DNA of 63,907 bases, the filler included, from Craspedostauros australis (Eukaryota): NCBI GenBank assembly GCA_030167865.1. It is 11 parts of 11 records of this genome, joined end to end, with 100 filler letters (N's around TTAATTAATTAA, not from the genome) between each part and the next. Parts side by side here need not be neighbours in the genome. Positions count along the whole stretch, not along the records: positions 1 to 24,488 come from JALAGF010002685.1; 10 more parts are not named here. The stretch is one strand, 5' to 3'. The first letter of the stretch is position 1, and every line of letters begins with the position of its first letter. The notes beneath the pieces are model-generated. The model searched no databases and was not told where the DNA came from. It was given only the letters and a program-made list of their open reading frames with translations. Below, in pieces: positions 1,166 through 46,209 of the stretch. The position numbers were made by a program, and so were the translations under genes.

Positions 1166-1181
1166 ATCTTCCACCCTCACT
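1166..1181. repeat. Target-site duplication, left copy
   Basis: ATCTTCCACCCTCACT, identical to 10556-10571 and directly abutting the (TAA)n tail. The final T could belong to the tail, giving 15 or 16 bp. Confidence 0.93.
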
Positions 1182-1341
1182 AATAATAATAACTCACAAT
1201 GACTAAACCCATAGAAGGGAATGCCCCGAGGGCTTTAGACTCGCCCGCACACGCCACACGGCTCCGGCTAGGTCGAGTATACCACAGATAATCGCGCCCA
1301 CCACGCTTCCTTCCAGATCGCCAACCCGTCGGCGCCCACCA

Positions 1342-1421
1342 GCCCCATCCGAAGGCTCTCAAGCCCATACACAGGCCGCCAAAGGCGGCCTGTGTATGGG
1401 CAGAGAGCCTTCGGATGGGGC
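1342..1421 (-). promoter_or_regulatory. Long inverted repeat / RNA hairpin 1 in the retrotransposon 3' UTR
   Basis: GCCCCATCCGAAGGCTCTC-aa-GCCCATACACAGGCCGCC-aaa-GGCGGCCTGTGTATGGGC-a-GAGAGCCTTCGGATGGGGC: 19+18 perfect base pairs with a 3-nt loop. Confidence 0.9.
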
Positions 1422-1461
1422 GTTGGCTCGCCAATCCGGTCAGCAACGACTTCACTTCTTG

Positions 1462-4400
1462 TCAACCTCCTATCGTACCCAGCCGAAGGCGCTCTGCCCT
1501 ACACAGGCCGCCGCAGGCGGCCTGTGTTTGGGCCTGGGCGCCTTCGGCTGGGTTACCGTCCACCACCGCCGAACACTGACCCTGTGCACTCGCGTCGGTT
1601 GGTGCCGCTTCTTGATTTCCTGTCGCTGTGACCGGATTGCCGGCAGTCGGACCCAGGTCGCCGATGCCGTCGCCAACCCACGCGTCGGGTCCACCTGTTC
1701 TAACCGCTCGTACGAACCGCAGCCACGCCGACCTTGTATGTTCGCCGGCCATCGAGGCTGCGTCAGATCCATGCTCTGCCACCGCCCTGTCGAGACGGTT
1801 CCAGCCCACGAACCCACGGGAACGCTCGGTCTCCTCTGTCACCGCGTCCATCGACGCCTGCGCCACAGCAAGAGCCTTGACTGTCGCACTCTTGACTCTG
1901 TTACGGCACCTCCACATGCCATGCACGAACCGCCAGCCCGCTAGCACCGCGTCGCGGGCCCAAGACTCAATCGTGTAGAACCGCCGCCCTGTGCCGTACT
2001 GTTCGAACCACTCCGCTTGCTGGTCGCACCACTCCTGCGGGATCCAGCCCAACAGTATGGGCCACCACTGCACGGGCGTCACCTCACTGAAACCATCGCG
2101 CACCGATCGCCCACAGTATGATCTTAGGCTCGCAAATATGTAGCTCACCATAGGCCCGCTCGTTCCGATGAGCTCCAACTCCTCCACGTACTGCTGGAAG
2201 CAGGCCTCCCATGCCGGCCCCGACGCTGCACACCGAACCACGTGCACTGCCGTCTCGGATTGCCCACACCACGGACACGATTCCTCGACACCGTACTGTT
2301 TGAGTTTCGCCCCCACGCCGATGAACCCGGTGGCCATCTTGGCCACAAAGATGCGTTGCTGCCAAGATGCCCTGCCGTGCGCCTTGCGTCGCCCGTGACA
2401 AGCAGTGGACTCGCTGGCTTGTCGAACCACCCCGAGCTTCCTGCCCCAGTAACCTTCAACAGTAGCACCCACGACCTCGTCATGGATGCCAGACGCTGCC
2501 CACGAAGACTTGGTGCCCTGTATCCGCAAGCTCCATTGGAAGGATCCCTCGCTCCGCCACACAGGCTTTGGCTTGCCCACTGAAGCCTCCCAGTACCGTT
2601 TGGCCGCTCCATCGCAGTGAACATTGAGAAGCGCCCAGCGGTCCAGCCGCCCTGGCCCGTCGTCTTGATGCCCACGGACCCAGCGGAACCGTACCTCTAT
2701 CGATAACCGCTGACGCATAGCCTTGATGTGACCGAGCATGTCATAGGACGGCTGGTGCACCTGCGCAACCCCGTCTCGACAGTTCTCCATAGCTCTCATC
2801 CCGTCAAGACCGACGACCACTAGACCCTGCCCTAGACTCCCGCCCTTCTCCAGTTCCAGCAGCTCGCGTAGTACCCCAGCTACTCCCGCCAGTTCACTGC
2901 GGTATGCCGACTGCACTGCCGGCTCCCCGGGCACCACGTTGCACCCTGTGCGTTGTACGCCTGAGTCCATCACACTAAGGACATACGCTGACGTACCGAA
3001 GCCCATTTTGAACGACCCGTCACTGACCGCCAACACATCGCCTCGGCGCAACGCCGCGCGCAATTCCGAGTCCGTTGCATCGCCGGATACATGCCCGCGC
3101 TCCCAATACTGACCTGAATCGAGCCCGTCCCTCTGGAACGTCGAGGGCAAAGTCTCACCCACCCGCTGCCGCTCCAATGCCTCGAGCCTCACCGTAGAAT
3201 GACCTGAGCTCATTGGGGAAGTACGCCGAGCCCTTGCCGGAAGCTCCTGTATCGACGTTGCCGTAGCTTGAAACTCCGGTCGGCGCCCACGCCTGCCCTG
3301 GTGACTTTGCCATACTTGGAAACCTTGGCCCACCCGTCGCCATGCCCTGTACTCGTCGTCAGGATCACGCCACCACACCCAGCCGTGATCGTCGTGAATC
3401 CACGCTTGCATACGCCGCCGGAGCCGCAGGTGGCGGTCCTCCGTGAAACCCTCTATCCACTCTTGCCACAACAGCCAATGTCGCCGGGTCAGCCTTCGAG
3501 GCATGCGCGGGTGGCCTGCTGACGTCGTGGCTCCACTATCTGTCCCTTGGAACGCAACCCGCATGACCCGGGAGCCATCTGCTGTCACCATATCTGAAAG
3601 CGTCCTGACTCTTAGAAACATGCGACATTCGTTCAGCATTCCTTTTTGCCTGTCGTTGAACCCCTGGCAACGCCAGCTGTCCAAGAGAAACACGTCACCG
3701 ACTCGCTGTCTCCGGACACACGGTCCCTTCTCTTCGATCGACACGCCAAACCTCTGCGCGTTCGCCCACACTTGCGTCACCCACGACGCTGTGACGTAGT
3801 TACCGCAATCGGCAAAACTCTGCTTGAACAGAGATCCCCCTCCTGCCGTCTCCATCTTCGCCTGCTCAATCGATAGCTCGATCATTCTGCCCGTAATTGA
3901 TCCTGTGCTAACCTCGTGCGCCATTGCTTGGACCTGAGTAGCCAACTGCCACACCATGGGATTGCGCATGCCAATACCGCCATTCGCCTTGGGTCCAAAT
4001 AACACCGCACGCGGGAATGTCCGGGCCACACCACCGCGCGGTAAGGCTTTGGACCATACTGGCGCGTACACGAAGTCCCACTGACGCTGGTTGAGCGTCA
4101 CTGCCTCCATAGGGTATTCCAATGTCTTGGTTATTCGCGTGGTGATCGCCATCCATATGAGGTCGCGTTGCAACCCTCCCGAGACCACCCTGTCTGCAAA
4201 CTCCTCGGCCTTCCGCCGTAGGTAACTGACTTGAGCCTCAGATGTGCCTACCATGTTCATAAACACTCCCAGGGTTTGTTCAGACTCGTTGGGATCAAGC
4301 CGCCTCAACTCCCTGTTGACACCGTGCGCGTCGCGTACCTGCACTTGCGCCGGAGCTGCCCTTGTTGTTTTCATCTGCCATTTCCCAGCAACGTAGTCGA

Positions 4401-7400
4401 ACGACAAGCCCCACCAGAAGCTTTTTGCCGGGACTAAGGCACCTCCCGTCGACCGTAGTACGCCTTCCCAGTCCTCCAATGCTTTTTGCGTTCGCTGCGT
4501 CACCGTTTCGAAGGACTCACCCGGTCTTGATACCATCAGGTCTGCGTCGTCCACGAAGCTGATGCCCACCAGATCCACTTGCTTGTGGCTGAGAGCTGAA
4601 ACAAAGCTCGCACCGTGACGCTGGGTGCGCATGGCCTCGAACATAGGCGAACTGATGGCAGCCCAAGCCGCTGGCCCACAGCCGTTGCCCTGGGCTAAGC
4701 CCTGCATTGGCACCCATCCCGAATTGCCGTAGGTCCTGGCGGACACCCCGTATGCCGTGCGTATGTGATGTTCCGCCTTTTGCAGAGTGCTAAACATGGA
4801 CTTCACCGCCGACCGCCTGCCGCCGGCATGTACCATGGCCATCGATGCCACACTGTGGACCACCCTGTCGTAGCACGACTTTGCGTCGTTGGAACAAATG
4901 GCCCCATTTTGCCGTTTTTGCCGCATGACGTCGACTACTATTCTCTTGCACAGAGCGGCTGTGGATGCCTTGTGGCCTTTACGGCTACCAAACTGCTCCG
5001 TCGCCATGCGGCCGTTGCTTTCAGCTGTTTGCATCAGATCTCTTCCCAGTTTCTTGTTGTTCATGTTGAAGGCGGGGTGGAATAGCTGGATGGTTCGCAT
5101 CTTCGCCACGTCGAACACTCCAGCCTTCTTGAGGATCTGGAAGTCGGTCATCACTCTCCACGATGCGGGGGAGAATCCTGTCTCATATGGAATCCTACGC
5201 AGGCGGCAGTCGATCGCCGCAAGCCCGTCGTGCTGGGCCGCTGCCTTGAAGTGCCCAAAGTGGGGGGCCGACGGCTCTGACGATGTCCATTCCTTCTGTT
5301 TTGCCCATCCATCAATGTGGTCTTGTTCTGTAAACGAGGTGTTGGGCACCGCGGAAGGGGCGGATCCTACTTGCGTCAGCAGCATACATGGATATTCGCC
5401 CGTCGTTGGCGTGGGCTTCCATTTCCCTTCACATACTCGGTCGGCTGCCGCAGTGTCTGCGAGGAAACCAAATCGACGCCGCAGGTCGCCGGTCATGAAC
5501 GGGGTGCTCGATGTTTGGTTGAACCGTTTCTTGTTCTCCACGATGCACGCCTTTTCGATGGCATGCTTAGTATCGCACACTGTCAACTCCCCGTCGTTCC
5601 TGGTGACTGTGACCTTGGTGGCCAGCGTTTGCTTGGGCTTGAGGCATGCCTTGAGACGCCGGTTGTCTCTAATTTGGCGCTCCTTCATTCTGCGAATATG
5701 GCTCGCCGTGCTTTCCAGTGCCGTACCCCACCTTGCTGATTCTTCCACTCCTTTGCATATCATGAAATCGTCACGCAGTTGGGATGCGGTTGGTTTGGCG
5801 GCTACGTAGGCCTTCCTGGAGGCGTCCATCTTCTCTCTTACTTGTTCCGGGCACAGCTGGCGCGGCCTGTGAATCCTCAGTCGTTTGGCCAGCCTCTTTA
5901 TAAGGGACGAGCTGATGTGGATGTTGTTCTGTTTTTTCCACACCGCTGTCCAAAGCTTGACCTCGTCTCTAAGCCGCTGTAGTGTCGGTGACCATTCCAG
6001 TGCCCCCATTCTCAGCTTTCTGCATTCCGCCTCTGCTTCTACTCGGAGTTGGTCCATCCCCTCATCAATGGCGTTGTACTCCTTGGCTAGCTCAGTGGTG
6101 ACCCCGCCTTGGGTACGGACGGCCTTCTCGAGCTCCTCGATTCTCCAATGGTACCCTCTCTGTTGCGCCTTGCCCCACAGGGTGCTCTGGTACTCGCTTA
6201 CCGCCGTTGCGTCCATCATCCGTAGACGTCTTGGCTCCACTCCCACCAGCGGGTTTAGGACACCAATGGTACTTGACTCTTTGATGTCGGCCCATACCAT
6301 CCTGTGATCGGAGTCAATGGACTCTCCAAAACCCAAGTAGCCGGCCTCCATAAGTTCGACGTCGTTGGTTACGTATATACCGTCGATCGGGATATGGTTC
6401 ATGTTGCGGTGCTGTGTTGCTTGCCTTTGTAGGTTGGGGTGCATGTACGTGGTTGCTTCACGCATACCCAACTCGCTGAACACTTCCGCGCATCTGCCTT
6501 CATTAATGTCTTGGTTTGCGTCGATGCCGACTACCACACTGTCGCCGTCCTGCTTCCACTCACGTATACTCCGTGCGAGGTCGAGAAGCATTGCCTCCCT
6601 TGGCTCCCTTGCATCCCCTTGCCCAAGCAGGTAGGTGCGCTGCTGGGCCCATGTGGAAGTTGGTCGGCTTGATGTGCATGCTCGATAGGCTGCCACCACT
6701 CGTATGTGCTTGCCCTTTCGACCCTCTATTCGCTGCCACACCCATCGCCCCAGATTGTCCGGATCCTCTCCTTCGTCGACCACTCGCTTGGAAAGGTATT
6801 TTGACGTTACGATTCCTGTTCCTCCGAACTGCACTTTGCTCGAGTGTGGGCTGTTGCGGTTGTAGGCAGCGCTAGCCTTGGAGTGTCCTCCCCACTTCAC
6901 CGCTCTTCTGGCCCATGAATCCCCGGTTTTCATTGACTTCCAGTTGAGTCCAATTTCCGCCATCATGAGCACGTGAATGTGTCTTAGTCGTATTTCTTCT
7001 CCAATTTGGCTGTTCTTGCGTCGCCATGGCTCCACCGGCAACCTCCCAATGTTTTGGAACGCGATCCTGATTGCACCCGCGCGCGGTTGCCTCATTGTAT
7101 TGCCGAAAATACCGTCCTCGGGCATGATTTGTGTTGTGTTTGCTGGTGTTGGGTCTTTATCCGCTGGGGCCCGACTGTTGCCGTCGTCTGTCTCGCGTGT
7201 CTCCTGCCTTTTCCGGTTTTTCTGTCTGTTGCGGCCGTTTCGGGCCGGCTGTAAAGTTGTCTCTCTTTGTTTATTTTTTTGGTTGTTAGGTATTCTGATC
7301 CTCTGGAACGGTCGTTGGTCCTCACCTACGCCGGTCTCTGTTCGTCCCGGGATGTGCACTGTCTCCCTACTCGGTCTTGTGTCTTCCCGCTCGTCCTTTC

Positions 7401-7548
7401 TTGTATGTATTTCTCGCTGTCCTTCTTCCTTTGATTGCTGCCTCCCTTTGCCTTGCAGGGTCTCTACCCCATTCTTCCTCCCTCTAACCAGTTGGGTGGA
7501 TTCCGGTCTTGGTTCACCACCCTTGGTTGGCTCTGAGGGTACCCTCAT
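1462..7548 (-). CDS. Retrotransposon ORF2: AP endonuclease - reverse transcriptase - RNase H - CCHC zinc finger (2028 aa)
   Basis: APE motifs IAFQNIG, MAEIG, GIDAN, PIDGI, SDHRMV. RT motifs QFGSRKG, SNDAKSCYDRV, QGLAQGNGCGP, FVDDADL, TLGV. RNase H motifs VSDGS, SAYRSELAG, LDG, RWVRGHQD, NVHCDGAAK. C-terminal CPWC-x6-H-x3-C. Confidence 0.95.
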   Translation of the reverse strand: MRVPSEPTKGGEPRPESTQLVRGRKNGVETLQGKGRQQSKEEGQREIHTRKDEREDTRPSRETVHIPGRTETGVGEDQRPFQRIRIPNNQKNKQRETTLQPARNGRNRQKNRKRQETRETDDGNSRAPADKDPTPANTTQIMPEDGIFGNTMRQPRAGAIRIAFQNIGRLPVEPWRRKNSQIGEEIRLRHIHVLMMAEIGLNWKSMKTGDSWARRAVKWGGHSKASAAYNRNSPHSSKVQFGGTGIVTSKYLSKRVVDEGEDPDNLGRWVWQRIEGRKGKHIRVVAAYRACTSSRPTSTWAQQRTYLLGQGDAREPREAMLLDLARSIREWKQDGDSVVVGIDANQDINEGRCAEVFSELGMREATTYMHPNLQRQATQHRNMNHIPIDGIYVTNDVELMEAGYLGFGESIDSDHRMVWADIKESSTIGVLNPLVGVEPRRLRMMDATAVSEYQSTLWGKAQQRGYHWRIEELEKAVRTQGGVTTELAKEYNAIDEGMDQLRVEAEAECRKLRMGALEWSPTLQRLRDEVKLWTAVWKKQNNIHISSSLIKRLAKRLRIHRPRQLCPEQVREKMDASRKAYVAAKPTASQLRDDFMICKGVEESARWGTALESTASHIRRMKERQIRDNRRLKACLKPKQTLATKVTVTRNDGELTVCDTKHAIEKACIVENKKRFNQTSSTPFMTGDLRRRFGFLADTAAADRVCEGKWKPTPTTGEYPCMLLTQVGSAPSAVPNTSFTEQDHIDGWAKQKEWTSSEPSAPHFGHFKAAAQHDGLAAIDCRLRRIPYETGFSPASWRVMTDFQILKKAGVFDVAKMRTIQLFHPAFNMNNKKLGRDLMQTAESNGRMATEQFGSRKGHKASTAALCKRIVVDVMRQKRQNGAICSNDAKSCYDRVVHSVASMAMVHAGGRRSAVKSMFSTLQKAEHHIRTAYGVSARTYGNSGWVPMQGLAQGNGCGPAAWAAISSPMFEAMRTQRHGASFVSALSHKQVDLVGISFVDDADLMVSRPGESFETVTQRTQKALEDWEGVLRSTGGALVPAKSFWWGLSFDYVAGKWQMKTTRAAPAQVQVRDAHGVNRELRRLDPNESEQTLGVFMNMVGTSEAQVSYLRRKAEEFADRVVSGGLQRDLIWMAITTRITKTLEYPMEAVTLNQRQWDFVYAPVWSKALPRGGVARTFPRAVLFGPKANGGIGMRNPMVWQLATQVQAMAHEVSTGSITGRMIELSIEQAKMETAGGGSLFKQSFADCGNYVTASWVTQVWANAQRFGVSIEEKGPCVRRQRVGDVFLLDSWRCQGFNDRQKGMLNECRMFLRVRTLSDMVTADGSRVMRVAFQGTDSGATTSAGHPRMPRRLTRRHWLLWQEWIEGFTEDRHLRLRRRMQAWIHDDHGWVWWRDPDDEYRAWRRVGQGFQVWQSHQGRRGRRPEFQATATSIQELPARARRTSPMSSGHSTVRLEALERQRVGETLPSTFQRDGLDSGQYWERGHVSGDATDSELRAALRRGDVLAVSDGSFKMGFGTSAYVLSVMDSGVQRTGCNVVPGEPAVQSAYRSELAGVAGVLRELLELEKGGSLGQGLVVVGLDGMRAMENCRDGVAQVHQPSYDMLGHIKAMRQRLSIEVRFRWVRGHQDDGPGRLDRWALLNVHCDGAAKRYWEASVGKPKPVWRSEGSFQWSLRIQGTKSSWAASGIHDEVVGATVEGYWGRKLGVVRQASESTACHGRRKAHGRASWQQRIFVAKMATGFIGVGAKLKQYGVEESCPWCGQSETAVHVVRCAASGPAWEACFQQYVEELELIGTSGPMVSYIFASLRSYCGRSVRDGFSEVTPVQWWPILLGWIPQEWCDQQAEWFEQYGTGRRFYTIESWARDAVLAGWRFVHGMWRCRNRVKSATVKALAVAQASMDAVTEETERSRGFVGWNRLDRAVAEHGSDAASMAGEHTRSAWLRFVRAVRTGGPDAWVGDGIGDLGPTAGNPVTATGNQEAAPTDASAQGQCSAVVDGNPAEGAQAQTQAACGGLCRAERLRLGTIGG
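1477..1553 (-). promoter_or_regulatory. Hairpin 2, a homologue of hairpin 1, overlapping the last codons of ORF2
   Basis: ACCCAGCCGAAGGCGC (1477-1492) pairs with 1538-1553. ACACAGGCCGCC-gca-GGCGGCCTGTGT (1501-1527) forms the apical stem. Confidence 0.88.
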
Positions 7549-10427
7549 TCTTGGCCTGCGATCTTCGAGTCGCTGGCGGTTGAACCTGTTGTGGGTGCAG
7601 AAAGTTCTGTCTGCTTTGTTGGCCGCACAGGTGGCCCGTTGTTGTCTGTTGCTGGGATGTCGGTTTTTGGTCTGGCTTTCTTCATCGGGCTAACCGCACG
7701 CTTCATGGTGGCCTCACCATGGTGGCGCTCCTCTACCTTGGAACCGCAAGCTTCTCTTTCTTTTTTCTTGGCTTGCGCCCTGGTCTTCATTTTCCTGGTG
7801 GTCAGTCGAGGAAACGGGGTCCCTGAGTCATCGTCTGATGAAAGGTCGACCAGGTTGACTACTTCGGCGGGGGCGGCGTTATCCTGTACCTGATAAGGAG
7901 GGGCTGATCCCATCGATACATCGGACATTGACCCGTCATCCTCAGCTTCCATGAAGTCATTGGCTTTGCTCCTGCCTTGCAGTTCCTCGAGTGTCTTGGT
8001 GGCTCTGTCGACGTCCTTTCCTTCCGGGGGCGTTTCGGGTTCGTCGCTGTTGGGCAGGGATACCGCCATGCCTGCCGCGGCTTTGGCTGTACTCGCCGCA
8101 CCGGGACCAAGAATAGCTTCCATCCATTGGGCCCTGGCCTCCGGGTCGATCACTTCTAGCTTTTTCATTGCTTCACCCACCACCCGCATTGTCTCTTTCT
8201 TCGCTTCTGGACATTGCGATTTCATCGAAGTGATGGCGGACCTTAGGGACGCGTCGTCGCAGTTGTGCCACCTTCGCATCACACCCACGGATCCGTGGTC
8301 GCCGTCCATGGTTTTGGGTATGGTCCCGAAGTCTATCGCAAAGGTCATCTTGGGTTGCTTGTTTTCAGGTTCCTCTTTGTCGTCTTCCGGGCGTTGTAGT
8401 CCCATGCTGGCGTACCATTCGTCGTCTACCTGTTTCTTGAGGATGTCCCGTTCCCAATCCGCTTTGATTACCTCCCCGTGCATGTTCATCTCGTAGCTCG
8501 TGTTGGCATCCCAGATGTAATCTGTGAACCAGGTGGCTGCTTTGCCGCCACAGTACTTGTACACCACCGTGGGCAGCAGTGGGATTATCATGCTGGCTTC
8601 CTCTGCGACGTCCTGGCTGTAGACAAACACTGTGTCGCCCCAGTTCCTGCCATTCTCAACAGCCAGAAATAGCACTGACCCGTCCTTATCTCCTGATGTC
8701 GACATGAGTTTGGAGAGGACGTTTCTCAGGGATACCTTGTTCTTTGGTTCTACGTAGTTGAGGCCGTGGATGAAGGAAACGATGGTGGTCTTTGTGTTCT
8801 CCAGGAATTCTTTCTGCTTCTTTTTGTACAGCATCGCGTTGCGCCTGTCCTCGTGTGTTGCTGGGCGTTGTTCATCGGTGAGGTCCGAGATGAATCGGAG
8901 GCGCTTGCCCAGGATCCTGTTCTTGCCCGCTGCAAAAAGTTTCCCCATGAGCTGTTCACACTTGATGGCATCTTCCTTACTTGCAAGGATGTGTGCGGCA
9001 TAAACCTGGTCCTCCTTCTTCACCTTCTCGTACTTGTCCAGCTTGATTGACTGCATGCGTATACCCACCTTGACTTTTGCCTTCACCATGTCCTCCAGGT
9101 TGTTGATGGCCTCTGTTAAGTCGTTGCAATTGGTCGATCTGTGGCTGGCGCAGAACCAGCCTACTGGCACCTCTTCTCTTGCTTGGACTGTGCACTTGGA
9201 AAGTATGATGTCGTTGTCCTGAAGGTGTCCGTCGTCCTGTAGCTCTGCCCACTCCTTGTTGTGTGAGAAGTAGAAACGGCACCATGTTTGCTTGCCCGCC
9301 TTTGTGTACATCTTGTTCACGTAGTTTCTGATTTTGGAAACCGAGGTCACCTTGTCACTGTCGGCTGTCAGTCCTTGGCCTTGTCCATCCCATCGGTGTA
9401 TGATCAGGTCTGGGTCTTGCGTGAACAGGTGCTCCATGAGGGTGGCCATTGCTTCGGTCACTTCTTTCTCCACGGACTTGTCTTTGCCTTTCAAGGTGGG
9501 GCTGCGGAAGGTACAGTAGGTACTGAAATTCCGTCCCAATGCTTCGTTGACGTTGCGCTTGTGGTCCTTTTTCACCATTGGCTTGCTGAGGAAGAACTGG
9601 CTGGCTGGAAGGAGTGTTGGCCCATCTTTACCTGTTGTAGTTGGGGTTGATTTCAGGGCTTCTGCGAATGTTGGAGAACCCTTCTTGTATGGGTTTTTGT
9701 TCGTGCACTCTTGCCTCTTCTTTGCGGTGGTGTTGATAGGTTGGCGCTGCGTAGCCGTGCTAGCTTTGGACTTTGGCTTTTGCTCTGTTTTGCGTGTTTG
9801 TTGGGTGCCTGCTTTGATTGGCGTCATTGCGGTCTTTTCCAGCTTGTTGTCTCCGCTGATTCTGTGTCGCTTCTCTGGTGACTCGATCGATGTGGTTTTG
9901 TTGACTACTCGGGCGGCTATCCATGGGTTGGTCATGATGCTACCCATGATATTCCCTTCTTTCCAGAATACCGGTGGGAACATATCAGCTTTCGTGGCCA
10001 GGAGGCGAGCTTCCATCTGCTGCACCTTCTGGTTGGTGGCTGCGTCCCAATGGCAGGCTTTCCCTTTCTTGAATACCTCGGTCCATTCCTCCATGGTCTC
10101 CAGATCACCTCTTTCGCACTCGAGGTAGTTGCGGATCACTCTCCATGCCGTGTTGATGGAGTCTCCTGCTCCCACGCATTCCGGGTACGGCTTGGCGTTG
10201 CTCATCTCCATCTTCCTCTTGACTTCTTTCTCTTCCGCTTCCGTCCACGTTGCCTGCTTTTTGGCGATACCGTTGTTTGGTGTGCCCGAAATCTCAACTC
10301 CTCCGAAATTCACCTGTTTCTTCCGCTGTTTGTTGCGGGAGGGGTCGCCATCGTCGTCCTGTGTCACTGGCGTCATGCTGGTCTTGTAAGCGCTCTGCTT
10401 CTTTTTAAATTTTATGTGTTTTGTCAT
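7545..10427 (-). CDS. Retrotransposon ORF1 (960 aa; putative nucleic-acid-binding/gag-like, no recognised domain)
   Basis: Long intact ORF inside the TSD-bounded element, immediately upstream of ORF2. Its TGA overlaps the ORF2 ATG (ATGA, 7548-7545). It has a basic N-terminus, a globular-looking centre and a low-complexity C-terminus. Confidence 0.88.
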   Translation of the reverse strand: MTKHIKFKKKQSAYKTSMTPVTQDDDGDPSRNKQRKKQVNFGGVEISGTPNNGIAKKQATWTEAEEKEVKRKMEMSNAKPYPECVGAGDSINTAWRVIRNYLECERGDLETMEEWTEVFKKGKACHWDAATNQKVQQMEARLLATKADMFPPVFWKEGNIMGSIMTNPWIAARVVNKTTSIESPEKRHRISGDNKLEKTAMTPIKAGTQQTRKTEQKPKSKASTATQRQPINTTAKKRQECTNKNPYKKGSPTFAEALKSTPTTTGKDGPTLLPASQFFLSKPMVKKDHKRNVNEALGRNFSTYCTFRSPTLKGKDKSVEKEVTEAMATLMEHLFTQDPDLIIHRWDGQGQGLTADSDKVTSVSKIRNYVNKMYTKAGKQTWCRFYFSHNKEWAELQDDGHLQDNDIILSKCTVQAREEVPVGWFCASHRSTNCNDLTEAINNLEDMVKAKVKVGIRMQSIKLDKYEKVKKEDQVYAAHILASKEDAIKCEQLMGKLFAAGKNRILGKRLRFISDLTDEQRPATHEDRRNAMLYKKKQKEFLENTKTTIVSFIHGLNYVEPKNKVSLRNVLSKLMSTSGDKDGSVLFLAVENGRNWGDTVFVYSQDVAEEASMIIPLLPTVVYKYCGGKAATWFTDYIWDANTSYEMNMHGEVIKADWERDILKKQVDDEWYASMGLQRPEDDKEEPENKQPKMTFAIDFGTIPKTMDGDHGSVGVMRRWHNCDDASLRSAITSMKSQCPEAKKETMRVVGEAMKKLEVIDPEARAQWMEAILGPGAASTAKAAAGMAVSLPNSDEPETPPEGKDVDRATKTLEELQGRSKANDFMEAEDDGSMSDVSMGSAPPYQVQDNAAPAEVVNLVDLSSDDDSGTPFPRLTTRKMKTRAQAKKKEREACGSKVEERHHGEATMKRAVSPMKKARPKTDIPATDNNGPPVRPTKQTELSAPTTGSTASDSKIAGQE

Positions 10428-10555
10428 TGTTGCAACGTACGTTCACGAGTTCCGAAACCGTTGGCGATAACCGTAGTTTCAGTACTGACTCTTACGTGAA
10501 TTCAAAACCTACTGGGTCTACGTACGCCTTTTTAATTCAGCGATTCCAGAAGAGT

Positions 10556-10571
10556 ATCTTCCACCCTCACT
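10556..10571. repeat. Target-site duplication, right copy
   Basis: ATCTTCCACCCTCACT, identical to 1166-1181 and 128 nt upstream of the ORF1 ATG. Confidence 0.93.
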
Positions 10572-10961
10572 CTTCATGAGCAGAAACAAAATGACCATGA
10601 CGAGGGTGACAATGGTGATGGCGACAATGACCATTCCGGCGAGCCCGACAGCCAAATCGCAGCGGAATGCTTTATTGCGGAAGTGATCTGATCCTGTGCA
10701 CTTCGCCAACTCAGCAAGGCCTTGCACATGGGCATGATCAACATCATGATCGCCCAACAGTCGACGGCATTCAAATTCGCCCTACCATTGCGTGCATCTG
10801 ACATCCCAGCATGAAGCATCCGATGTATCGGATCGTTGCCAACACTCCAGTAGCATCGCCGTTGCCGAGCACAAGTATACAACGAGTACGTCTTCTAGTT
10901 TATGAATGTCGCAATGATTACCTACCTACCTACCTACGTATGTGCCTACCTACATTCCTAC

Positions 10962-13261
10962 CTACAATAGGCTCCTGCGCTTCACCTCGCCCAAGGCCTG
11001 CATTGCCTCTTTTCTATTGATGGACCCGTCGCCGGTGATGTCCAGCACGTCCTTCAGCTTTTCCACGACGCTGCGCAACTGATCATGGGACGCGATGTTG
11101 TCTCCCAGAACTTCTATTGCGACGTCCTTCATCACGCACAGCTCTTCGTGAGTGCACACGTGATCGATCATGTCCGTCGCCACGAACTGGACCACCATCA
11201 TGTCCAACGGTGAGATGCGCCCGGTGTTGTCCAAATCGGCGACATTCATGATGGAATCGACGACGATGTCGGACACGTCTTCGCCGAACACCTCGATGGA
11301 GCGGGCCTTGATTTCTTCGTGCGTCAAGTATCCATCGTTGTTCGTGTCGATGCTCTCGAACGAACCCATCTCGAGCCAGATCAGCGCGCTGAACATCTCG
11401 ACGAGAAGCAGCTTCGCTTCGCGACCTGTCTCGTGCAAGTCCTCCAGGTTCACGATACTGCGTGGTTGAAGTTTGCTCCATTCCAACAGTGGTTCGTGGT
11501 TGTCCATTCCGGCGAAGAAATCGCACGGCATGGCGGTCAGGTATTGCTTCTCCGCGTCGAACGGCTCGCCGGCGATGCTACGGATCGTATTCGTATCGTA
11601 GTCCCAATCGATGTTGTCGCAAGCATGCAGATACCCACCGGACGCAACTGGCGGGTTGTGCTCGTAGATGAATCTTCGGGAATGCAGAATGGTATCCTGC
11701 AGCACCTTGCCGGGGAGGTACACCGCGGTCATCATGGTGTGGAAGGGGATTTCGCTCTTCAGATCGCTCCAGGCGAACCACTCCTGGTCATCGTACACCT
11801 TGTTGCCGCGGATGGAGCCGGCATTGAAGATTGCGCAGGTGCTGCGCATGGCCATACGGAGCATGGCGATCAGCACACGCGATCCGTTGGATGGTCCCAA
11901 TCGATTGCTCTTTGTTCCGAAGACGCCTTCTCCGACCTTAGACTTTTTCATCCAGTCCGAAATACGGAATAGTTTGGCCTTCTCCAGTTCGCTCAGGATG
12001 CGTTCATGGCCCTCGACACGTCTCTGGATGGCTGGATCTGCGGCGTACGTTTTTGTGGGCACGAAATCTACGTTGATGGTTGGCTGTTGATGTGACTTTG
12101 CTTTGTCAGCGCCAGCTGCGCCGCCACTGGCGTTGTCCTTGCCGTCGTTCCAAATGATATCGATGACAGCTGTCGTGTGTGCATCGCACCCGGTCTTTAG
12201 TATGCGGCTGCATGCGCCACTATCTGCCCTGATGGTCTCATCGTACGGTTCATGATCATGCCCTCCCAGCACGACGGGGAAGACGTCTGCAAACGTCTCG
12301 GCGAATTCCCGATCCTCCGGCATGCGCTGGTGCGTCATCGGGACGAACAGGTCCGGTTGCTCTTCGCTCTGAATCGTTTGCAAATACTGCTTGGTTGTAG
12401 AGATGATGGGGTCGATCTTGGCGCCTGCAAAGCTGGTGGGAAAGTAGAGCGAGGGATCATCCGTTAGCAGACCCAAGAGCGCGACCTTCTTGTCACCGAC
12501 CTGTACCATCACATATGGCTCTGTCTTCACATCGAGCAGCGTATCCAATTCTCGCATGTTGGTATTGATCCAGCAAAACTTGGATTCTCGTATGCGTTGT
12601 GCAAGTGCTTGGGGCGATACATCTAGAGAGAGCGGAGTAGAGCAGAGCACAGTAGAGGAGAGTATGAGTATGAGTAATTGGTACACACGTATTTGGTCGT
12701 CAGCATCAGATGTTGGCATGCGTAGAAACAGGAGCACAGGTTGAGTGCAAGCAAGTGTTCGCAGGCAAGATGAGGGAGCATCTTGTTGCAGTCATCGCAG
12801 TGTACGATGTATCAATGAGAGCGTCCAAAATCCAGGACACTCGTCGAATAGTCAGCTGTTGATACAATTCTCCAAGCGTGATGCGAGTAGGGTGAAACAT
12901 ACTGCAGAAGCAGGGGAGCCGCCCATGGCAGAATGTTCCTCCCCTGTCATATAATAGATTACATCCATGCAACCGTGCACTGGTGGGCAATCTCACCTGT
13001 CTCATGGTTGCCGATGCAAACATGGGTGACGCTGCAGGCATTGAGGATGTCGACCATCCCACGACCCTTGTCCAAGGAGCTCAGCAGGGAAGGTGCCAGA
13101 AAATCCCCCGCCAAAATGACGAGCGTGTGTTCGATTCCAGCGGATAGGTCCTTGACCAGAGTGTGGAAATGGGGCAGGTAGTCGAGTTCGTATACGTCGT
13201 TGATTTGGAAGATGCGGAGATGCGTGCGCGCGGATGCCTCCGCGGTCTGTTGTCCTTCCAT
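10962..13261 (-). CDS. 5'-nucleotidase/apyrase-family metallophosphoesterase with C-terminal EF-hands; exons 13261-12997 and 12622-10962 (~641 aa; start uncertain)
   Basis: Motifs QINDVYE, LAGDFLAPS, GNHET|D (restored by GT-AG intron 12996-12623), TH, LGGHDH and FNAGSIRG. EF-hand loops DTNNDGYLTHEE, DLDNTGRISPLD and DITGDGSINRKE. Confidence 0.88.
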
Positions 13262-24390: not shown

Positions 24391-24488
24391 CACAAAACAC
24401 ATCACACAAAACACATCACACAAAACACATCACACAAAACACATCACACAAAACACATCACACAAAACACATCACACAAAACACATCA
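24391..24488. repeat. Minisatellite (CACAAAACACATCA)7 at a contig end
   Basis: Seven exact 14-bp units running into the N gap. Confidence 0.95.
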
Positions 24489-24532
24489 NNNNNNNNNNNN
24501 NNNNNNNNNNNNNNNNNNNNNNNNNNNNNNNN

Positions 24533-24544
24533 TTAATTAATTAA
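24533..24544. other. Artificial contig-joining linker TTAATTAATTAA (also at 26265, 39458, 40735, 42415, 44367, 46154, 52667, 53844, 62356)
   Basis: Identical 12-mer with stops in all six frames, each embedded between runs of about 44 Ns. Confidence 0.98.
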
Positions 24545-24588
24545 NNNNNNNNNNNNNNNNNNNNNNNNNNNNNNNNNNNNNNNNNNNN

Positions 24589-26220
24589 TTCCGCGGCTGG
24601 GCACCAGCACCGAACATATCCAACAAAGTAGGAACAACGGACGCAGACGGCTTCACAACCATTGGACGGAAGGGAGCAATGCCAAGGACGGCAACACGTC
24701 GAACATCAGAAGCAAAGAGAGTATCTTTCGCTGACAGCAACAGGTACTACATCCTATCGGACAGCAACGATGCGGATGATGAGAACGATGGAGCAGTAAC
24801 CCAACTAATCCATAACAACGACGAAGATCGGAGCGAATCCAATCATGAGGATGACAAGATCACACCATCCGGCGACGAAGCTGACGATGACACAGGCATC
24901 ATTCCTCCAAACACACCAGCCAGGTCTACACATGACACACCATCCAGACCTCCACCGAGCAAACCAAGCAAATGTGACATAGCCAGAAAGGAGAGAATCC
25001 AACGTCACGAATTACGAGGCAGGAAGGGAGAAGCTAATCCCAAGCCAACTACAGGGAAGAGTATTCCCAGAGCTCTGCGTGAGCTCGCAGACTTCAACAA
25101 ACGAGGTCGAAAGGAAGAAGGCTATGAGAGCGATCCATCATCCAATGAGGCGAGTGACGAACTCAGCGACGAGACGATCGATGATTCCAACAACGAAACT
25201 ACAGATGACGAAGAAATCGCAGATGAAGGAGAGATTGAGATCACTCACTATAGTACAACAGGACTGTACGGAATGAATGCAATCATTACCGAATCACCAG
25301 CGATCGACATCGGATTGTCGATGCAGGACGAGAACAAGGAACCAGAGAAGCACATCGAACCTACAACATTCGATGGAGCCTTCAATCACCCAGATCCTAT
25401 CCATCGGAAGGGATATCGAGCAGCCATCAAGACGGAATTCGACTCCATGGATACATGCAAGGTGTACAGCAAGATCAAACGAGATGCCATTCCACGCGGC
25501 CGCAGATGCTGCAAGTGCAAATGGGTCTTCAAGCTGAAACGTGACGGCACACATCGAGCGCGGCTCGTTGCATGTGGCTATTCACAANNNNNNNNNNNNN
25601 NNNNNNNNNNNNNNNNNNNNNNNNNNNNNNNNNNNNNNNNNNNNNNNNNNNNNNNNNNNNNNNNNNNNNNNNNNNNNNNNNNNNNNNNNNNNNNNNNNNN
25701 NNNNNNNNNNNNNNNNNNNNNNNACCTCGACGAGGAGATCTACATGAACTGTCCCAACGGGATGGATCATCAACCAGACGAAGCTCTGACCCTACATAAG
25801 CCAATCTACGGACTTGTACAGAGTGCCAGGCAGTGGTTAAAGATGTTGGTATCGACCCTCAAGAATATCAACTTCGAACAGAGCGCAGCGGACCCGTGCC
25901 TGTTCTACAGGAAGACAAACAAAGGAAGCACAATCGTGGCCATCGACGTGGACGATTGCTTCTGCTGCAGAGACTCCAAGGCACTGGAGACATTCCTGAA
26001 GGACATCCAAGGCAGCAANTTCAAGGTGACAATCGAGCGCGGACTCGGAGATTACCTCAGCTGCAACATCGAACTGAACCATGACAAGACCAGAGCGACA
26101 TTGCGTCAACCATATCTCATCCGACACCTCATCGAAGAGTTCGGAACCAAGGTTGAGAAGATGCAACGCTACGCGACACCGGGAACCCCGGGCCAAATCA
26201 TCGTACGACCATCCGAAGAT
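24589..26220 (+). mobile_element. Ty1/copia (CoDi-type) pol fragment: integrase-RT linker and RT N-terminal half, degenerate
   Basis: KWVFKLKRDGTHRARLVACGYSQ, LDEEIYM, IYGLVQSARQW and DPCLF are present. The catalytic YVDD reads DVDD. Confidence 0.9.
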
Positions 26221-28573
26221 NNNNNNNNNNNNNNNNNNNNNNNNNNNNNNNNNNNNNNNNNNNNTTAATTAATTAANNNNNNNNNNNNNNNNNNNNNNNN
26301 NNNNNNNNNNNNNNNNNNNNATGCTGGCGAGGCGCTCCCAACCAGTAAAGTACGCGTAGAGAATGCAACAAGCAGCTTGTTGCGTCAGCACACGAGTGGA
26401 CGGAGACGGCAGTACGGTGCGGGCATGGTACAGATTGGATGCATGAACACAAGGAAGCACAAACGACCTCGGGTCGTGCAAAATCTGTTTCGCTCCCTGA
26501 TGTGGCGCTGATGATGCGATGTGGATGGTACAACGGGCAATGAATAGAACAAGAAGAGGGGAAGCATAGATCTGGGGACGGTTGTTGGTATTATATCATA
26601 CTTGCTTGGTTTTTGGCATGCTTTCTGGAATCTGAACGGCTGTGATTTGCATCAACACTCGTCCAACACCACGTACCACGCAGTGCGCGATATGACCATG
26701 CAGTCTCTGCCATCAGCATCGCTACAATGCAATCCGCAGATGCGCGTGATGGTCCTTCTCACCACGCTGATTCGAACATATCTGGTCCGGTTCACAAGAG
26801 GGCGAATGTTGCATTCTCACTCACACCATGGCAAGTGGCATTAAGCAACATGCTGTATCATCCAAATAGGGGCTGGAGCAAGACGGCCGTTGGATTCATC
26901 CTCACTTAATGATGAAATTCTAAATGCGATCATACGAAGAACTCGATGATATCTTGCAGCCGCCGTACCGATCCCTGAGGAGAAGATGAATTGTACACAA
27001 GTGTTTTGATGCAGAGGCAAGATGCGATCATGGATGTGTGTCGACGGGCACACAAGAAATTGGAATGTGAGCGTGGATGGATGGATGCGTGCATTGATGG
27101 ATGGATGGATGGATGGATGGATGGAGATGCAGCAACACTTCACGGTGCTTCCATCCATGCAGCCCATGAAAGGTGGCAGACGAGCTCAAACTTTCCATGA
27201 GGCTGCTGGCGGACTCAACCATGAAAGCATCGCTGACGATTGCATGATATAATACACCACTCATCATCTGGTGTTTGTCGGTTGTTCCCCACGCACATCT
27301 GGGTGTTCGGGCGACATCATCCCTTGATCAATGACAACACGAAGTTAGACAACGTCGGCCCAATGCAACATGAGCACATTCAGATTGCGAGGAATGCAGA
27401 GGCATCCGCGAACAGGACCGTGGGATTTGATCAGCATCGAGCAACTCCACCATGGACAGCCACGATGGCGATGCTGAGAGAATTGGCGGACACAAGAACA
27501 GGCCAATGAGCAGGCCAACGTATCGGTGAAATGGCGCCAAGCTCTCCAACAAGGCGCGCGGTCTCTCGAAACACCTCTTCTCTTCATCACGGTCACTCTT
27601 CTCTACACTGACAATGCTGCCTTCGTCCAACCGCTAATGCAGCAGAGAAGCAGGATCGTGGTCTGCGTGAACCAACAAATGGTCGGTCGAATCTCCCAGT
27701 ATTGGATGGGTGTGGAAATATTCTATTCTATGTACCAATGTGGCGCCAAAATAGCGAGACGGTCAACAATTGAGCGCAGCACAAGGTGAGTGGGGATACG
27801 AAGAGAATACAAGCTGCAGTCCATGGCGATTGTGGGAGGGCAAGGTATCGATGGCGGTGGAATCTCAGCATTGAGCAGAGTATCCAAGCGCCGCAGCATG
27901 ACCCCAAAAGCAATAACCACCGTCACGCAAGAACGATTGCCCACGAAATCGTTCGGTTGTTCGTCTCTGTCATGGATGGAGACCGTGGTGGTGGAGCCTC
28001 ATCAAGGAGGTCTGATTTGTGCGACCATGAATCAAAACGTCATTCGTGTTTGGCTTCAGTCGAGTCCCATGAAGGTGAGAAAGGCGGAAAACGCCTCCTT
28101 TTGTGACGGAAGAAAGAGTTTCGGGAAGAAGAGGCAAGGAGAGGAGCAAACGATGATGTTCCACCGGCTTCATGGTCCTGTACCGGTTCTGCCACGGAAG
28201 CACTTTGTGGGCACGAATCAAACCAAAGCAGACCAAAACAGACCAAAGCAAAGCCAAAGAAGACGCAGAAGAAAGGGATCACAACCAAGATTTGTCTCTC
28301 TTCGAAGCACTTGGAGCGCTGTTGGAGAGACGTTGTTGACACCTGGCGTTGCAATCGTCATCATAGACAACAGCATCCATTCGAGGAGGCCATCGTCCCA
28401 TACTCGTACATACATCCTCGTAGATCACGCCTCGTTGGCTGTGGAAGTGGTTCCACGACTGCAAACACGCAAACGAAGCGGTCATCTTCCGAGTCAACAG
28501 AGACATCGGTGAAAGGCTCACCACCAGGCATTCCAGAATCAGTCCATCAACCAGCCAAAAGGCGATCGTGACG

Positions 28574-37300: not shown

Positions 37301-39092
37301 CATATTGGATCATCCAGAAGATCCACGAGGAGATGCCCATCCTCCAAGCCATGGATACTGTCATCATGAATCAGGTGAAGGTTGGCAACGCACACCTCCA
37401 TGTCGATACACAGCACGAGTCATCTGAGCAATCGGCAACATCAACAACGCACGATTCTTCCAGAGCTTTGGCCAAGAAAATGTCGAGCGAGTCCCTGAAC
37501 ACATTTACCGAGCAACATTCGTCTGGGAATCCAAAGCACACCAACTCCTTCGTGGGAAGGCGATACGGAGCGATGTCGAACACCTCGCAGCTGGAGGTCC
37601 AGTGGAATGCCGATGTGATGAAGGGCATGATCAGGCGAATCCTTGCAATGCGCTCGAAGGACCAGCTCAAGCTGCTCAATAGTCCCAAGAGCCGCCATGG
37701 TGACATCAAGTTGCCCCAACGCCATGGAACAGCCCTCGACGAAGTGCAGGAAGTCATCAAGCTCCCCAGCGAATCGCTGCCGTACCAGCAGGATCCGTCC
37801 GCGATAGAGCTGAGCCCCGCCGTAAGGTCGCAGGTCGATCACTTCGTCTTCACCATCTCCCAAATGTACCGATCCAACCCGTTCCATTCCTTCTCGCATG
37901 CCAGCCACGTGGTCCAATCCACCGTCAAGCTCCTTTCCCGAATCGTGAGGAAGGAGGCGATTGACTACAACGACATGTGCTACAAGGAGAGCAACGGAGA
38001 CGCGCTTCACAAGTTCACCTTCGGCATCACGTCCGATCCCATCACGCAATTCGCATGCGTGCTTGCTGCGTTGATTCATGATGTTGATCACACCGGCCTT
38101 CCCAACTCCCAGTTGGTGAAGGAGGGGGTGGATATCGCCAGCAAGTACAAGAACAAGAGCGTTGCAGAGCAAAATTCCTTCGATATTGCATGGGATCTGA
38201 TGATGTCCCCGCAGTACCGTGAGATGCGAGAGTGCATCTACTCCACCAAGCAGGAGCTCATGCGATTCCGCCAGCTGCTGGTGAACGCCGTGCTTGCTAC
38301 GGACATCATGGACAAAGAGCTCAACGCCCTCCGCAAAGCCCGTTGGGCCAAAGCATTCGACAAGCCACAAGCCAAACACACACGCTTGGACCATTCCGGC
38401 ACCCTTACGAGCGATTCATCGAAGGGAAGCAACAGCGAGGAAGATGCCAACCGAATGGCCACCATTGTCATTGAGCATCTCATCCAGGCCTCGGATGTCT
38501 CGCACACGATGCAACGTAAGTCAGATCGCTTTGTGACAGTTTCGTGAAATGAGTTGAGTTGATGTGATGCATGTGATGTGATTGTGTGATTACGTGCTTG
38601 CGGGTTCGTGTGTGCTCGAGCACCTCTTTGGCAGCATGCCAGCTGTACGATCACGATTCGGCAGCAACATGATCTCAACTATATTTCCCTTTCGCATTGC
38701 TCTACTCTACATATCTTGACATTCACGCACTGCCTGTGCTCCGATTGTATCCCTGCCATTCATCCTCTCCAACCTTCTGCTGTGCAACCACAGATTGGCA
38801 CGTCTACCAAAAGTGGAATGAGAAGCTGTTCCATGAAATGTACGTCGCGTACAAGGCCGGCAAGGCAGAGAACGACCCATCCTTGGGTTGGTACAAGGGC
38901 GAGCTCGGGTTCTTCGATTTCTACATCATCCCGTTGGCGAAGAAGTTGAAGGATTGCGGCGTGTTCGGCGTATCGAGCGACGAGTACTTGAACTACGCGC
39001 AGGCCAACCGCCAGGAATGGGCAACACGGGGTCAGGACGTGGTGGCGAGATATATCCGTAAGGAAAGTTTCGGTCCTCAGGAGGACATTTAG
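34308..39092 (+). CDS. Receptor-type class III nucleotidyl (guanylate-like) cyclase - phosphodiesterase fusion; exons 34308-34637, 35048-36362, 36800-38515, 38794-39092 (~1219 aa)
   Basis: TM1, an extracellular sensor region, then TM2. Cyclase motifs FADIVGFT|AWSS, KVETVGDCY and RFQLFGDTVNTAARIE. PDE motifs NPFHSFSHASHV, IHDVDHTG, ATD and QASDVSHTMQ|HW. Three GT-AG introns give 3660 nt in frame. Confidence 0.92.
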
Positions 39093-39862
39093 TGCTATCT
39101 GTCCTCCTGAGGACATTTATTTTTGACATGCATCGTAACTGTNNNNNNNNNNNNNNNNNNNNTATCTGTCCTCCTGAGGACATTTAATTTTGGCGTTTGA
39201 CTGGTTGGAACACGTATCCACGACACAAATTATGAGTGTCGCGACAATTCATCGCGTTGTGGCTGGTGCCATCTGCTTCGTTCTTTTTTGCCATCTGCAC
39301 ATCCACACGCCAATCTGTTCAATAGTATTCCAGAATATTATTCTATATTATTATATTCTATAATGTTCTACAACATCTGCTTTCAGTTGCGTCACTTATG
39401 GGTGTTGGGGGGANNNNNNNNNNNNNNNNNNNNNNNNNNNNNNNNNNNNNNNNNNNNTTAATTAATTAANNNNNNNNNNNNNNNNNNNNNNNNNNNNNNN
39501 NNNNNNNNNNNNNGAGTGACAACGGAGACAGTCTCCTCCCATAAATCCATCATTAGCACACACACACACACACATCCTCCCGTACAGATACTGACAAAGG
39601 CATTACAGCAAAATCGGCGTCCACTATGATTCTTATATTTCTTTCTAGTTTATGAACATGTGGGTGGCTGGGTCGAAAGCCCCGTATCTTCGTATCCCCT
39701 CCCCCCCACCCCCCGCCCCACGCTCTGCCCCGCTACCCCACCCACCGCCGCCCCCCCAGCCACCACACACAAAAAGAAAAAAACAAAAAACGAACTCCGC
39801 TCTACTTTGTTTTTTTTTTTTTTTTTCTTTTACTTTTGCGTGGGCGGGGCGGCCGCCCAACG

Positions 39863-39893
<31 letters not shown>

Positions 39894-40816
39894 AGGACCG
39901 ACTGCAGGTCCCGTCACTCAAGTGGGTCCTAACTCGACCTCCTCCCTCCATGTTACCCACAACAACAGGATGAAGCGATGGAAGCACTGTCTACCTGTGT
40001 GTTTTAGATTGCACGACCAGTACCCTGTGCTACACTTGTGCCTACCTATGATAGAACTGAATGGACAAAAGTTGAGGAGAGGAGAGTAGATTGGAAAAGA
40101 GTACTCCAGGGTGAATGTTGACAAGACCATGACGGATGAAAGGATCAACGGTTTCCCGCAATTACGTGCACGTTGCTTTTCTTGATTGGCGCGGATCCTC
40201 TTCTCCACTCACGACTTTCATGCATGCACCTGCCATGGCACCACGAGCATACTATACACAGTCGGAGAGAGAGAAACGCGACATCTCCAAATCAAACTGC
40301 CAACTCTCTCTCTCTCTCTCTCTACAGACCCAACGAAGGTTAAAGACTATCTTCTAAATTCAAGGAGGTTGACTACCTGGTCTCTGCTCCTCGCATGCCC
40401 CAAGTCTCCATCTTTGACCGTTTGCCAATGTGGTCTTCTGGTGCCCTGCGCATCTTACCGTCCATCCTGTCGCGCCCTGTTGTGTCAATGACAGACGGTG
40501 CGGTGGACGAGGCGTCATCGCTCTCTAGGGGACGCAGACATCATTTCGGTCACAACACTGTGTGCAGCATGTGCAATCGGTCTCCGGAGGCAGGATGCCG
40601 TCGCCTGGTTCCTTGCAGTCTGAACTAAACAAAGAGAATTGGAATGATCCATCGCAAAACATTTCGGTGAGGTTGCCTGTGATCGAGTTCNNNNNNNNNN
40701 NNNNNNNNNNNNNNNNNNNNNNNNNNNNNNNNNNTTAATTAATTAANNNNNNNNNNNNNNNNNNNNNNNNNNNNNNNNNNNNNNNNNNNNTGCAGCTCAC
40801 ATTTTTCTGTGTCACA

Positions 40817-42370: not shown

Positions 42371-42470
42371 NNNNNNNNNNNNNNNNNNNNNNNNNNNNNN
42401 NNNNNNNNNNNNNNTTAATTAATTAANNNNNNNNNNNNNNNNNNNNNNNNNNNNNNNNNNNNNNNNNNNN

Positions 42471-44322: not shown

Positions 44323-44422
44323 NNNNNNNNNNNNNNNNNNNNNNNNNNNNNNNNNNNNNNNNNNNNTTAATTAATTAANNNNNNNNNNNNNNNNNNNNNN
44401 NNNNNNNNNNNNNNNNNNNNNN

Positions 44423-46109: not shown

Positions 46110-46209
46110 NNNNNNNNNNNNNNNNNNNNNNNNNNNNNNNNNNNNNNNNNNNNTTAATTAATTAANNNNNNNNNNNNNNNNNNNNNNNNNNNNNNNNNNN
46201 NNNNNNNNN

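Follow-up and report, generated by a model that had tools for sequence, protein, structure and literature searches.

Two diverged long hairpins and an enclosing stem at the 3' end of a full-length LINE from Craspedostauros australis

For only a few long interspersed nuclear elements (LINEs), from animals and amoebae, is it known how the protein selects the RNA of its own element, and in these the signal is a small stem-loop. Stringent LINEs need a 3' stem-loop that is bound by the cognate ORF2 protein (ORF, open reading frame; PMC4176376), and in the known recognition stem-loops the stem measures 8-10 bp and the loop 5-7 nt, a bulge being placed 4-6 bp from the loop (PMC5135761). In R2, the binding affinity of the element's protein depends on two stem-loops (PMC11194090), and in TRE5-A a 3' hairpin is essential for retrotransposition, point mutations in its stem abolishing mobility in a reporter assay (PMC3159450). 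Here we describe a LINE from Craspedostauros australis (GenBank assembly GCA_030167865.1) whose 3' end carries two much longer hairpins, one a diverged copy of the other, and a further stem that encloses the second. The element lies on the minus strand of the stretch of DNA that was analysed, which is 63,907 nucleotides long, filler included, and is called the window below. No description of long hairpins, or of tandem ones, at the 3' ends of LINEs was found in open-access papers or on bioRxiv.

The first hairpin (H1) consists of 19 bp, an AA/A internal loop, a further 18 bp and a 3-nt loop. Its 37 perfect Watson-Crick pairs, reported in an initial annotation of this locus, were recovered both by direct reading and by a repeat finder. 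The folding energy of H1 is -83.1 kcal/mol on the minus strand, which is the sense strand of the LINE, and -82.3 kcal/mol on the plus strand. It is separated by ~40-41 nt from the preceding ORF2 stop codon and by 160 nt from the 3' end of the element. The second hairpin (H2) starts 132-134 nt from the start of H1, ends 12 nt before the ORF2 stop codon and forms 16, 4 and 12 pairs on the minus strand, 32 in all. It was correctly described as a diverged homologue: 64 of the 81 aligned columns are identical to H1 and 17 differ, both have the same apical 12 bp and the same 8-nt outer motif, and an unpaired interruption is retained at the same position of the two stems. The stem that encloses H2 was also found as annotated, with 11 perfect bp and a 7-bp extension beyond one bulged base; the extension holds one G·U pair on the minus strand that becomes A·C on the plus strand. 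This long-range stem is present in the centroid folds of 1182-1700 on both strands, and its 3' half lies 10-30 nt past the ORF2 stop codon.

This structure is real and exceeds chance by a wide margin. Folding of the minus strand of 1182-1700, a check that the initial annotation had itself proposed, gave -288.1 kcal/mol (z -10.08) and folding of the plus strand -261.6 kcal/mol (z -12.92), and 0 of 100 shuffles folded as well in either case. The apical motif common to H1 and H2 was found twice, against 0.00 expected in shuffles, and an 11-bp perfect inverted repeat like that of the long-range stem arose in 3 of 300 dinucleotide shuffles of the 362 nt in which both hairpins had been masked. Outside the helices, no excess folding was seen on the minus strand in either 1182-1341 (z +1.96) or 1554-1644 (z +0.39). 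Thus, the "large RNA domain" first suggested for this region amounts to three helices and no further structure.

The differences between the two hairpins include several that are mirrored on both arms. Thirty-one of the 37 H1 pairs are unaltered in H2. Three double substitutions preserve pairing (a terminal G-C to A-T once, T-A to G-C twice), and one H1 pair has been removed from both arms by a two-sided 1-bp deletion. One H2 pair is altered in a single arm and has become A·C on the sense strand (T·G on the plus strand), and two adjacent H1 pairs are broken. The two mirrored changes quoted in the initial annotation are joined by a third and by the two-sided deletion. Random placement of the observed 3 and 5 arm substitutions produced at least three pair-preserving doubles with a frequency of 4.5e-5, and controls in which the partner was slid gave 0 doubles at every offset; thus, the mirrored changes between H1 and H2 are not due to chance. 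A shuffle control of the paired changes (57/500) has a floor of about 1 in 8 with two sequences, and the placement simulation was used instead. The argument that the wobble pairs single out the minus strand stood only in part: the G·U of the long-range stem does pair on that strand only, but the T·G of H2 works only on the plus strand, so that one wobble favours each strand and the preference is balanced.

The LINE that carries these helices is full length, with both frames open. Its borders are set by a 16-bp target-site duplication (TSD), which is identical at 16/16 positions and directly follows a (TTA)3-4 run; the two flank regions searched share no longer exact match. The element therefore extends from 1182 to 10555, and the hairpins sit, as had been proposed, at a true retrotransposon 3' end. 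If the first A of the TSD is included, the tail reads (TTA)4. The 3' untranslated region (UTR) is 280 nt long, and self-BLAST of the window revealed no long terminal repeats. Within the ORF2 frame, RVT_1 was matched at residues 855-1074 (E 3.8e-08, 33.7 bits against a cut-off of 29.6), and weak matches were obtained to Exo_endo_phos (E 0.015, 15.5 bits, below the cut-off of 24.5) and RNase_H (E 0.085, 13.5 bits, below the cut-off of 25.8); in an I/Ingi/Tad-like layout, an apurinic-type endonuclease would precede the reverse transcriptase and RNase H would follow it. An invariant DGS...D...H...D pattern and a C-x2-C...H...C motif are common to ORF2 relatives, one of which carries the source name "ribonuclease HI". 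The LINE is intact and probably recently active. The divergence of the hairpins at 17/81 columns, set against a TSD identical at 16/16 positions and open ORFs, is much larger than any decay after insertion and places both the divergence and the re-pairing before the insertion, in a propagating lineage. From the same three observations we infer that the hairpins were duplicated and re-paired in a lineage that propagated through RNA. Coordinates are collected in Table 1.

Table 1. Features of the LINE and of its 3' end in the window
Feature	Position	Strand	Basis or remark
Full-length non-LTR (long terminal repeat) retrotransposon (LINE), 9,374 bp	1182-10555	minus	16-bp TSD borders, two long open frames, RVT_1
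TSD, 3' copy, 16 bp	1166-1181		exact match to 10556-10571
TSD, 5' copy, 16 bp	10556-10571		exact match to 1166-1181
3' tail, (TTA)3TT on the LINE sense strand	1182-1192	minus	read directly; abuts TSD
Hairpin H1, in the 3' UTR	1342-1421	minus	repeat finder and folding
Hairpin H2, diverged copy of H1, within the non-conserved last ORF2 codons	1477-1553	minus	alignment and folding
Long-range stem around H2, 3' half in RNA	1432-1452	minus	11 bp (1432-1442, exact reverse complement of 1629-1639) and 7-bp extension (1444-1450)
Long-range stem around H2, 5' half in RNA	1621-1639	minus	1629-1639 and extension 1622-1628
Spacer after H1 resembling 1645-1700 (weak repeat)	1286-1341	minus	score reached by 9/2000 shuffles
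ORF2 stop codon, between H2 and H1	1462-1464	minus	frame reading
ORF2 frame, 2,075 codons stop to stop	1465-7689	minus	conserved protein ends near window position 1700
ORF1, 960 codons from first ATG, no Pfam family	7548-10427	minus	frame stop to stop 7545-10442

A HMMER search with the last 699 residues of ORF2 returned 1,582 relatives, all distant, the 150 listed being 23-40% identical, and a word-index protein search returned four proteins at 24-31% identity. The nearest of these ORF2 proteins are unnamed and at most 40% identical. Homology stops at query residues 613-627 of 699, at about window position 1700, and the last invariant column of an 18-sequence alignment is W613, at about 1725. 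The hairpins and stem therefore begin where the conserved part of ORF2 ends; on the same query, the upstream half of the long-range stem corresponds to residues 641-645 and H2 to residues 670-695. Among the best 150 of the 1,582 relatives, 16 reach residues 618-654 and none aligns past 654, so that the last ~45-75 ORF2 codons are unmatched among the relatives listed. A protein search found no homologues of the last 110 residues. The initial annotation had noted that the last ~60 codons of ORF2 run through the structure, which is literally so (58 codons separate the upstream half of the long-range stem from the stop codon) but does not extend to a conserved protein tail, which 0 of the 150 listed relatives match. 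An open frame through H2 was rejected as a sign of coding, five of the six frames being open there. Because of this, and of the lack of any match among the relatives listed, the ORF2 tail is better read as non-conserved read-through into 3' UTR-like sequence.

Close relatives of the LINE were not found in scans of genome, viral and metagenome contigs or in protein libraries, and a single-protein search of contigs for related loci found nothing. A profile search from a narrower alignment yielded a single locus in genome contigs, L010, and 0 in viral contigs. L010 is a 2.5-kb contig with an RNase H region that is 33% identical to the ORF2 of the window and an ORF that ends at position 1523. The contig (1-2472), which encodes RNase H and the C-terminal region of an ORF2 of eukaryotic LINE type, is filed under a Bacteroidota metagenome-assembled genome; it is probably eukaryotic and was binned wrongly. 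Pattern scans for the 25-nt motif at the hairpin apex gave 5 loci in genome contigs, 0 in viral contigs and 4 in metagenome contigs. All nine come from bacterial or metagenomic contigs, form short GC-rich hairpins and have only the 25-nt apex in common with H1 and H2; their matches to a covariance model of H1 and H2 cover no more than model positions ~24-58 of 81. The window itself holds no further copy of the hairpins, whether searched by pattern, by BLAST or with the covariance model, and no other long GC-rich hairpin. A 20-bp hairpin at 39073-39114, 90% complementary and with a 2-nt loop, was the sole other compact hairpin picked up by the covariance model (E 0.26) and is unrelated in sequence.

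Some traces of how the region was built may remain in the spacers. The spacer after H1 and that after H2 (1422-1476) both show likeness to the last conserved coding stretch of ORF2, 1645-1700, with scores reached by 9 and 6 of 2000 shuffles, respectively. Their likeness to each other is insignificant (148/2000 shuffles), so we do not claim a duplicated unit of exactly 133 nt. Between the two copies, the hairpins are far better kept than the spacers, which barely align (64/81 versus 34/67 columns). These resemblances weakly suggest repeated local duplication around one ancestral hairpin.

The interpretation that we tentatively favour, though with less than even confidence, is that the hairpins and stem may form a lineage-specific, enlarged and duplicated 3' recognition module for target-primed reverse transcription, acting together with the (UUA)n tail. 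We favour it because stringent LINEs, R2 and TRE5-A all use 3' stem-loops or hairpins. Consistent with such a role, the module lies inside a LINE with a perfect TSD, a simple-repeat tail and ORFs of 960 and ~2,000 codons; it has therefore passed through the last round of RNA-mediated copying, or else arose only after it.

Comparison with the described systems shows both likeness and difference. The stringent LINEs of the L2 clade (UnaL2, ZfL2-1 and ZfL2-2) likewise combine a 3' UTR stem-loop with a short tandem-repeat tail instead of poly(A), and H1, in the 3' UTR upstream of the (TTA)3-4 tail, has the same placement. In contrast to those elements, the stems here are 37 and 32 bp long with 3-nt loops, there are two copies, H2 is inside the ORF2 frame, and the loop is separated from the interruption by 18 bp in H1 and by 12-16 bp in H2. 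Since their size and shape fall outside the definition of the stringent stem-loops, the module would at best work like them and is not a member of the class. The 3' UTR RNA of R2 from Bombyx mori is, as far as the source describes it, also a multi-helix 3' RNA that the element's protein binds selectively as template for target-primed reverse transcription; it is not known to be a pair of duplicated near-perfect palindromes. R2 is, moreover, a site-specific, single-ORF element with a different endonuclease. The C-module hairpin of TRE5-A from Dictyostelium is likewise a predicted secondary structure at the 3' terminus of a LINE, but according to its description it is ~54 nt long with a ΔG of about -20 kcal/mol, is placed at the very 3' end and also serves as an antisense promoter; H1 and H2 are each four times more stable and are internal to the 3' UTR.

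The module may have grown by local duplication of one long palindromic hairpin with its neighbouring sequence. If it does serve recognition, then in the sense transcript, read from the minus strand, the hairpins would fold into long duplexes, which the LINE's own ORF2 protein may recognise as the mark of its template, as in stringent LINEs. This would bring the protein close to the (UUA)n tail, the starting point of target-primed reverse transcription in this scheme. Because a terminating ribosome would release new ORF2 protein beside the still-folded H1, action in cis might be favoured. The complementarity of the arms could be kept by arm-to-arm copying through template switching as well as by selection, and the two are not exclusive.

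Several observations weigh against a recognition role. All of the evidence comes from one single copy of the LINE, and the 3' end of its distant relative L010 has no inverted repeat of at least 12 nt, no excess folding (z +1.63) and no match to the covariance model, so the feature is not ancestral to the wider group. The known stem-loops, as their sources describe them, are far smaller and lie near the 3' end; H1 is 160 nt distant from it, and those 160 nt are unstructured (z +1.96). Long perfect duplexes in a messenger RNA are expected to attract RNA interference. Not one G·U occurs among the 69 sense-strand pairs of H1 and H2 (37 and 32), and folding is equally good on both strands, which has the look of a palindrome at the DNA level and is atypical of a selected RNA stem. 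All four two-sided changes lie within one contiguous 16-bp perfect outer block of H2, and two of the three double substitutions are double transversions from T-A to G-C, for which there is no wobble intermediate. These four changes could stem from one arm-to-arm copying event, without selection at the RNA level. Template switching is described as creating perfect stems and multibase compensatory changes in one event (PMC8794818), which weakens the inference of RNA-level selection. Thus, of the initial proposal that compensatory changes mark a selected RNA module, the co-variation stands and the selection does not follow from it.

Much of this evidence fits a neutral passenger, in which the palindromes were made or re-perfected by template switching, whether of a DNA polymerase or of the element's reverse transcriptase (RT), were then duplicated in tandem, and are not needed by the element. 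We regard this as the most serious alternative, somewhat less likely than the recognition role. It is favoured by the wobble-free, strand-symmetric folding, by the crowding of the two-sided differences into one block of H2 beside uncompensated mid-stem differences, by the direct T-A to G-C exchanges, by the documented precedent for one-event template switching and by the lack of the structure in L010. The hairpins described in that precedent are similar in having perfect arms and clustered "compensatory" differences explicable by one copying event; they differ, as far as the account goes, in belonging to ribosomal and other RNA genes and in arising through DNA replication, whereas here the RT of the element could also do the copying. 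A neutral origin fits less well with the persistence of the module in a lineage that has kept ~9 kb of coding capacity intact, with hairpin copies that are much better conserved than their spacers, with a stem interruption kept at the same place in both copies and with a further stem around H2 of a kind seen in only 3 of 300 shuffles. In addition, the RT must presumably read through hairpins of about -80 kcal/mol in every cycle, and a useless obstacle of this kind would be expected to be lost.

A source of small RNAs is an unlikely alternative. The 32-37-bp duplexes would be cut by a Dicer-type enzyme into small RNAs directed against the element, either as self-limitation or as a handle for the host. 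Stem length and shape are within the range of microRNA precursors, and the wobble-free pairing would suit a need for true duplex RNA. Across the whole window Rfam gave no family at gathering score, and there were 13 matches below threshold, the best being MIR477 with 40.1 bits against a cut-off of 65; the only families matched by the hairpins are microRNA precursors, all far under their gathering scores. H1 and H2 thus share duplex length, overall shape and sub-threshold Rfam matches with transposon-derived microRNA precursors and hairpin-RNA loci but, unlike them, lie inside the transcript of a protein-coding retrotransposon and not in a dedicated locus, and belong to no family at gathering score. 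A Dicer-type pathway in the host is assumed by this explanation, and where a lineage keeps its ORFs intact, selection would be expected to act against an element that makes small RNAs directed at its own transcript. A combined scheme, which we consider a little more doubtful still, would have the hairpins replace the short 3' stem-loop with a two-site landing pad, on which two copies of the protein are loaded at termination, and at the same time act as a Dicer-type substrate that caps copy number, with arm-copying by the RT keeping the duplexes perfect.

It is improbable that the hairpins form a translation-linked device, with H2 before and H1 after the stop codon slowing or parking the ribosome and so tuning ORF2 output or termination without any recognition by the RT. 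Geometry alone speaks for it (H2 stops 12 nt short of the stop codon; past the codon come the 3' half of the long-range stem, at 10-30 nt, and H1, at ~41 nt), but the protein sequence encoded across H2 is not conserved and five of six frames are open there, so the position of the stop codon may be accidental.

Very improbable, despite the palindromic shape and an uneven assembly in which part of the window consists of short contigs joined by linkers, is an unrelated foldback or miniature inverted-repeat transposable element (MITE)-like insertion into the LINE 3' end, which the initial annotation had raised as a counter-explanation, or an assembly artefact: the bases flanking H1 and H2 form no direct repeat, the recurring motifs being imperfect and 6-17 nt away, the 64-kb window holds no further copy by pattern, BLAST or covariance model, tandem copies ~133 nt apart with recurring neighbouring motifs fit local duplication and not two insertions, and no linker is near the hairpins, which belong to the contiguous first 24 kb. 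That the hairpins belong to the LINE, and are not a dispersed insertion, is thus supported as far as the 64-kb window shows.

If the recognition role is real, a young, intact LINE with two duplexes of ~35 bp would extend the known range of recognition signals. With its TSD defined, its ORFs intact and two hairpin copies that diverged naturally, the locus would suit swap experiments, and it could serve to separate three usually confounded factors: selection for RNA pairing, exposure to RNA interference, and the mechanical restoration of palindromes through template switching. If instead the hairpins are neutral passengers, then mirrored substitutions between palindrome copies are by themselves no evidence of a functional RNA.

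ORF1 is unusually long at 960 codons and has no Pfam match at E 0.01. Its frame overlaps that of ORF2 by ~142 nt (7545-7689, minus strand), and the ORF2 frame has ~190 basic, low-complexity codons ahead of the endonuclease region. The first ORF2 ATG past the ORF1 stop codon is ~420 nt downstream of that stop; frameshifting, reinitiation and an internal start are candidate routes to ORF2 translation. No match to a solved structure was returned by a PDB sequence search with the endonuclease-RT region of ORF2. The initial annotation had spoken of Ambal-like elements; Ambal is one of the 32 LINE clades listed in PMC5753468.

The LINE landed in the downstream region of a host gene at 10966-12400, ~400 nt past the gene end. 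This gene, also on the minus strand, ends ~400 nt upstream of the LINE 5' end, and in its C-terminal part the encoded sequence resembles EF-hand calcium-binding motifs; the stop codon of the gene is followed by a (TACC)n microsatellite at 10919-10965. The window contains ten runs of N (24488-24589, 26219-26322, 39414-39513, 40691-40790, 42371-42470, 44323-44422, 46110-46209, 52623-52722, 53800-53899 and 62312-62411), each split by one common 12-base linker with stops in all frames. Only positions 1-24487 are one contiguous piece, and beyond ~24.5 kb the window looks like a chain of short contigs.

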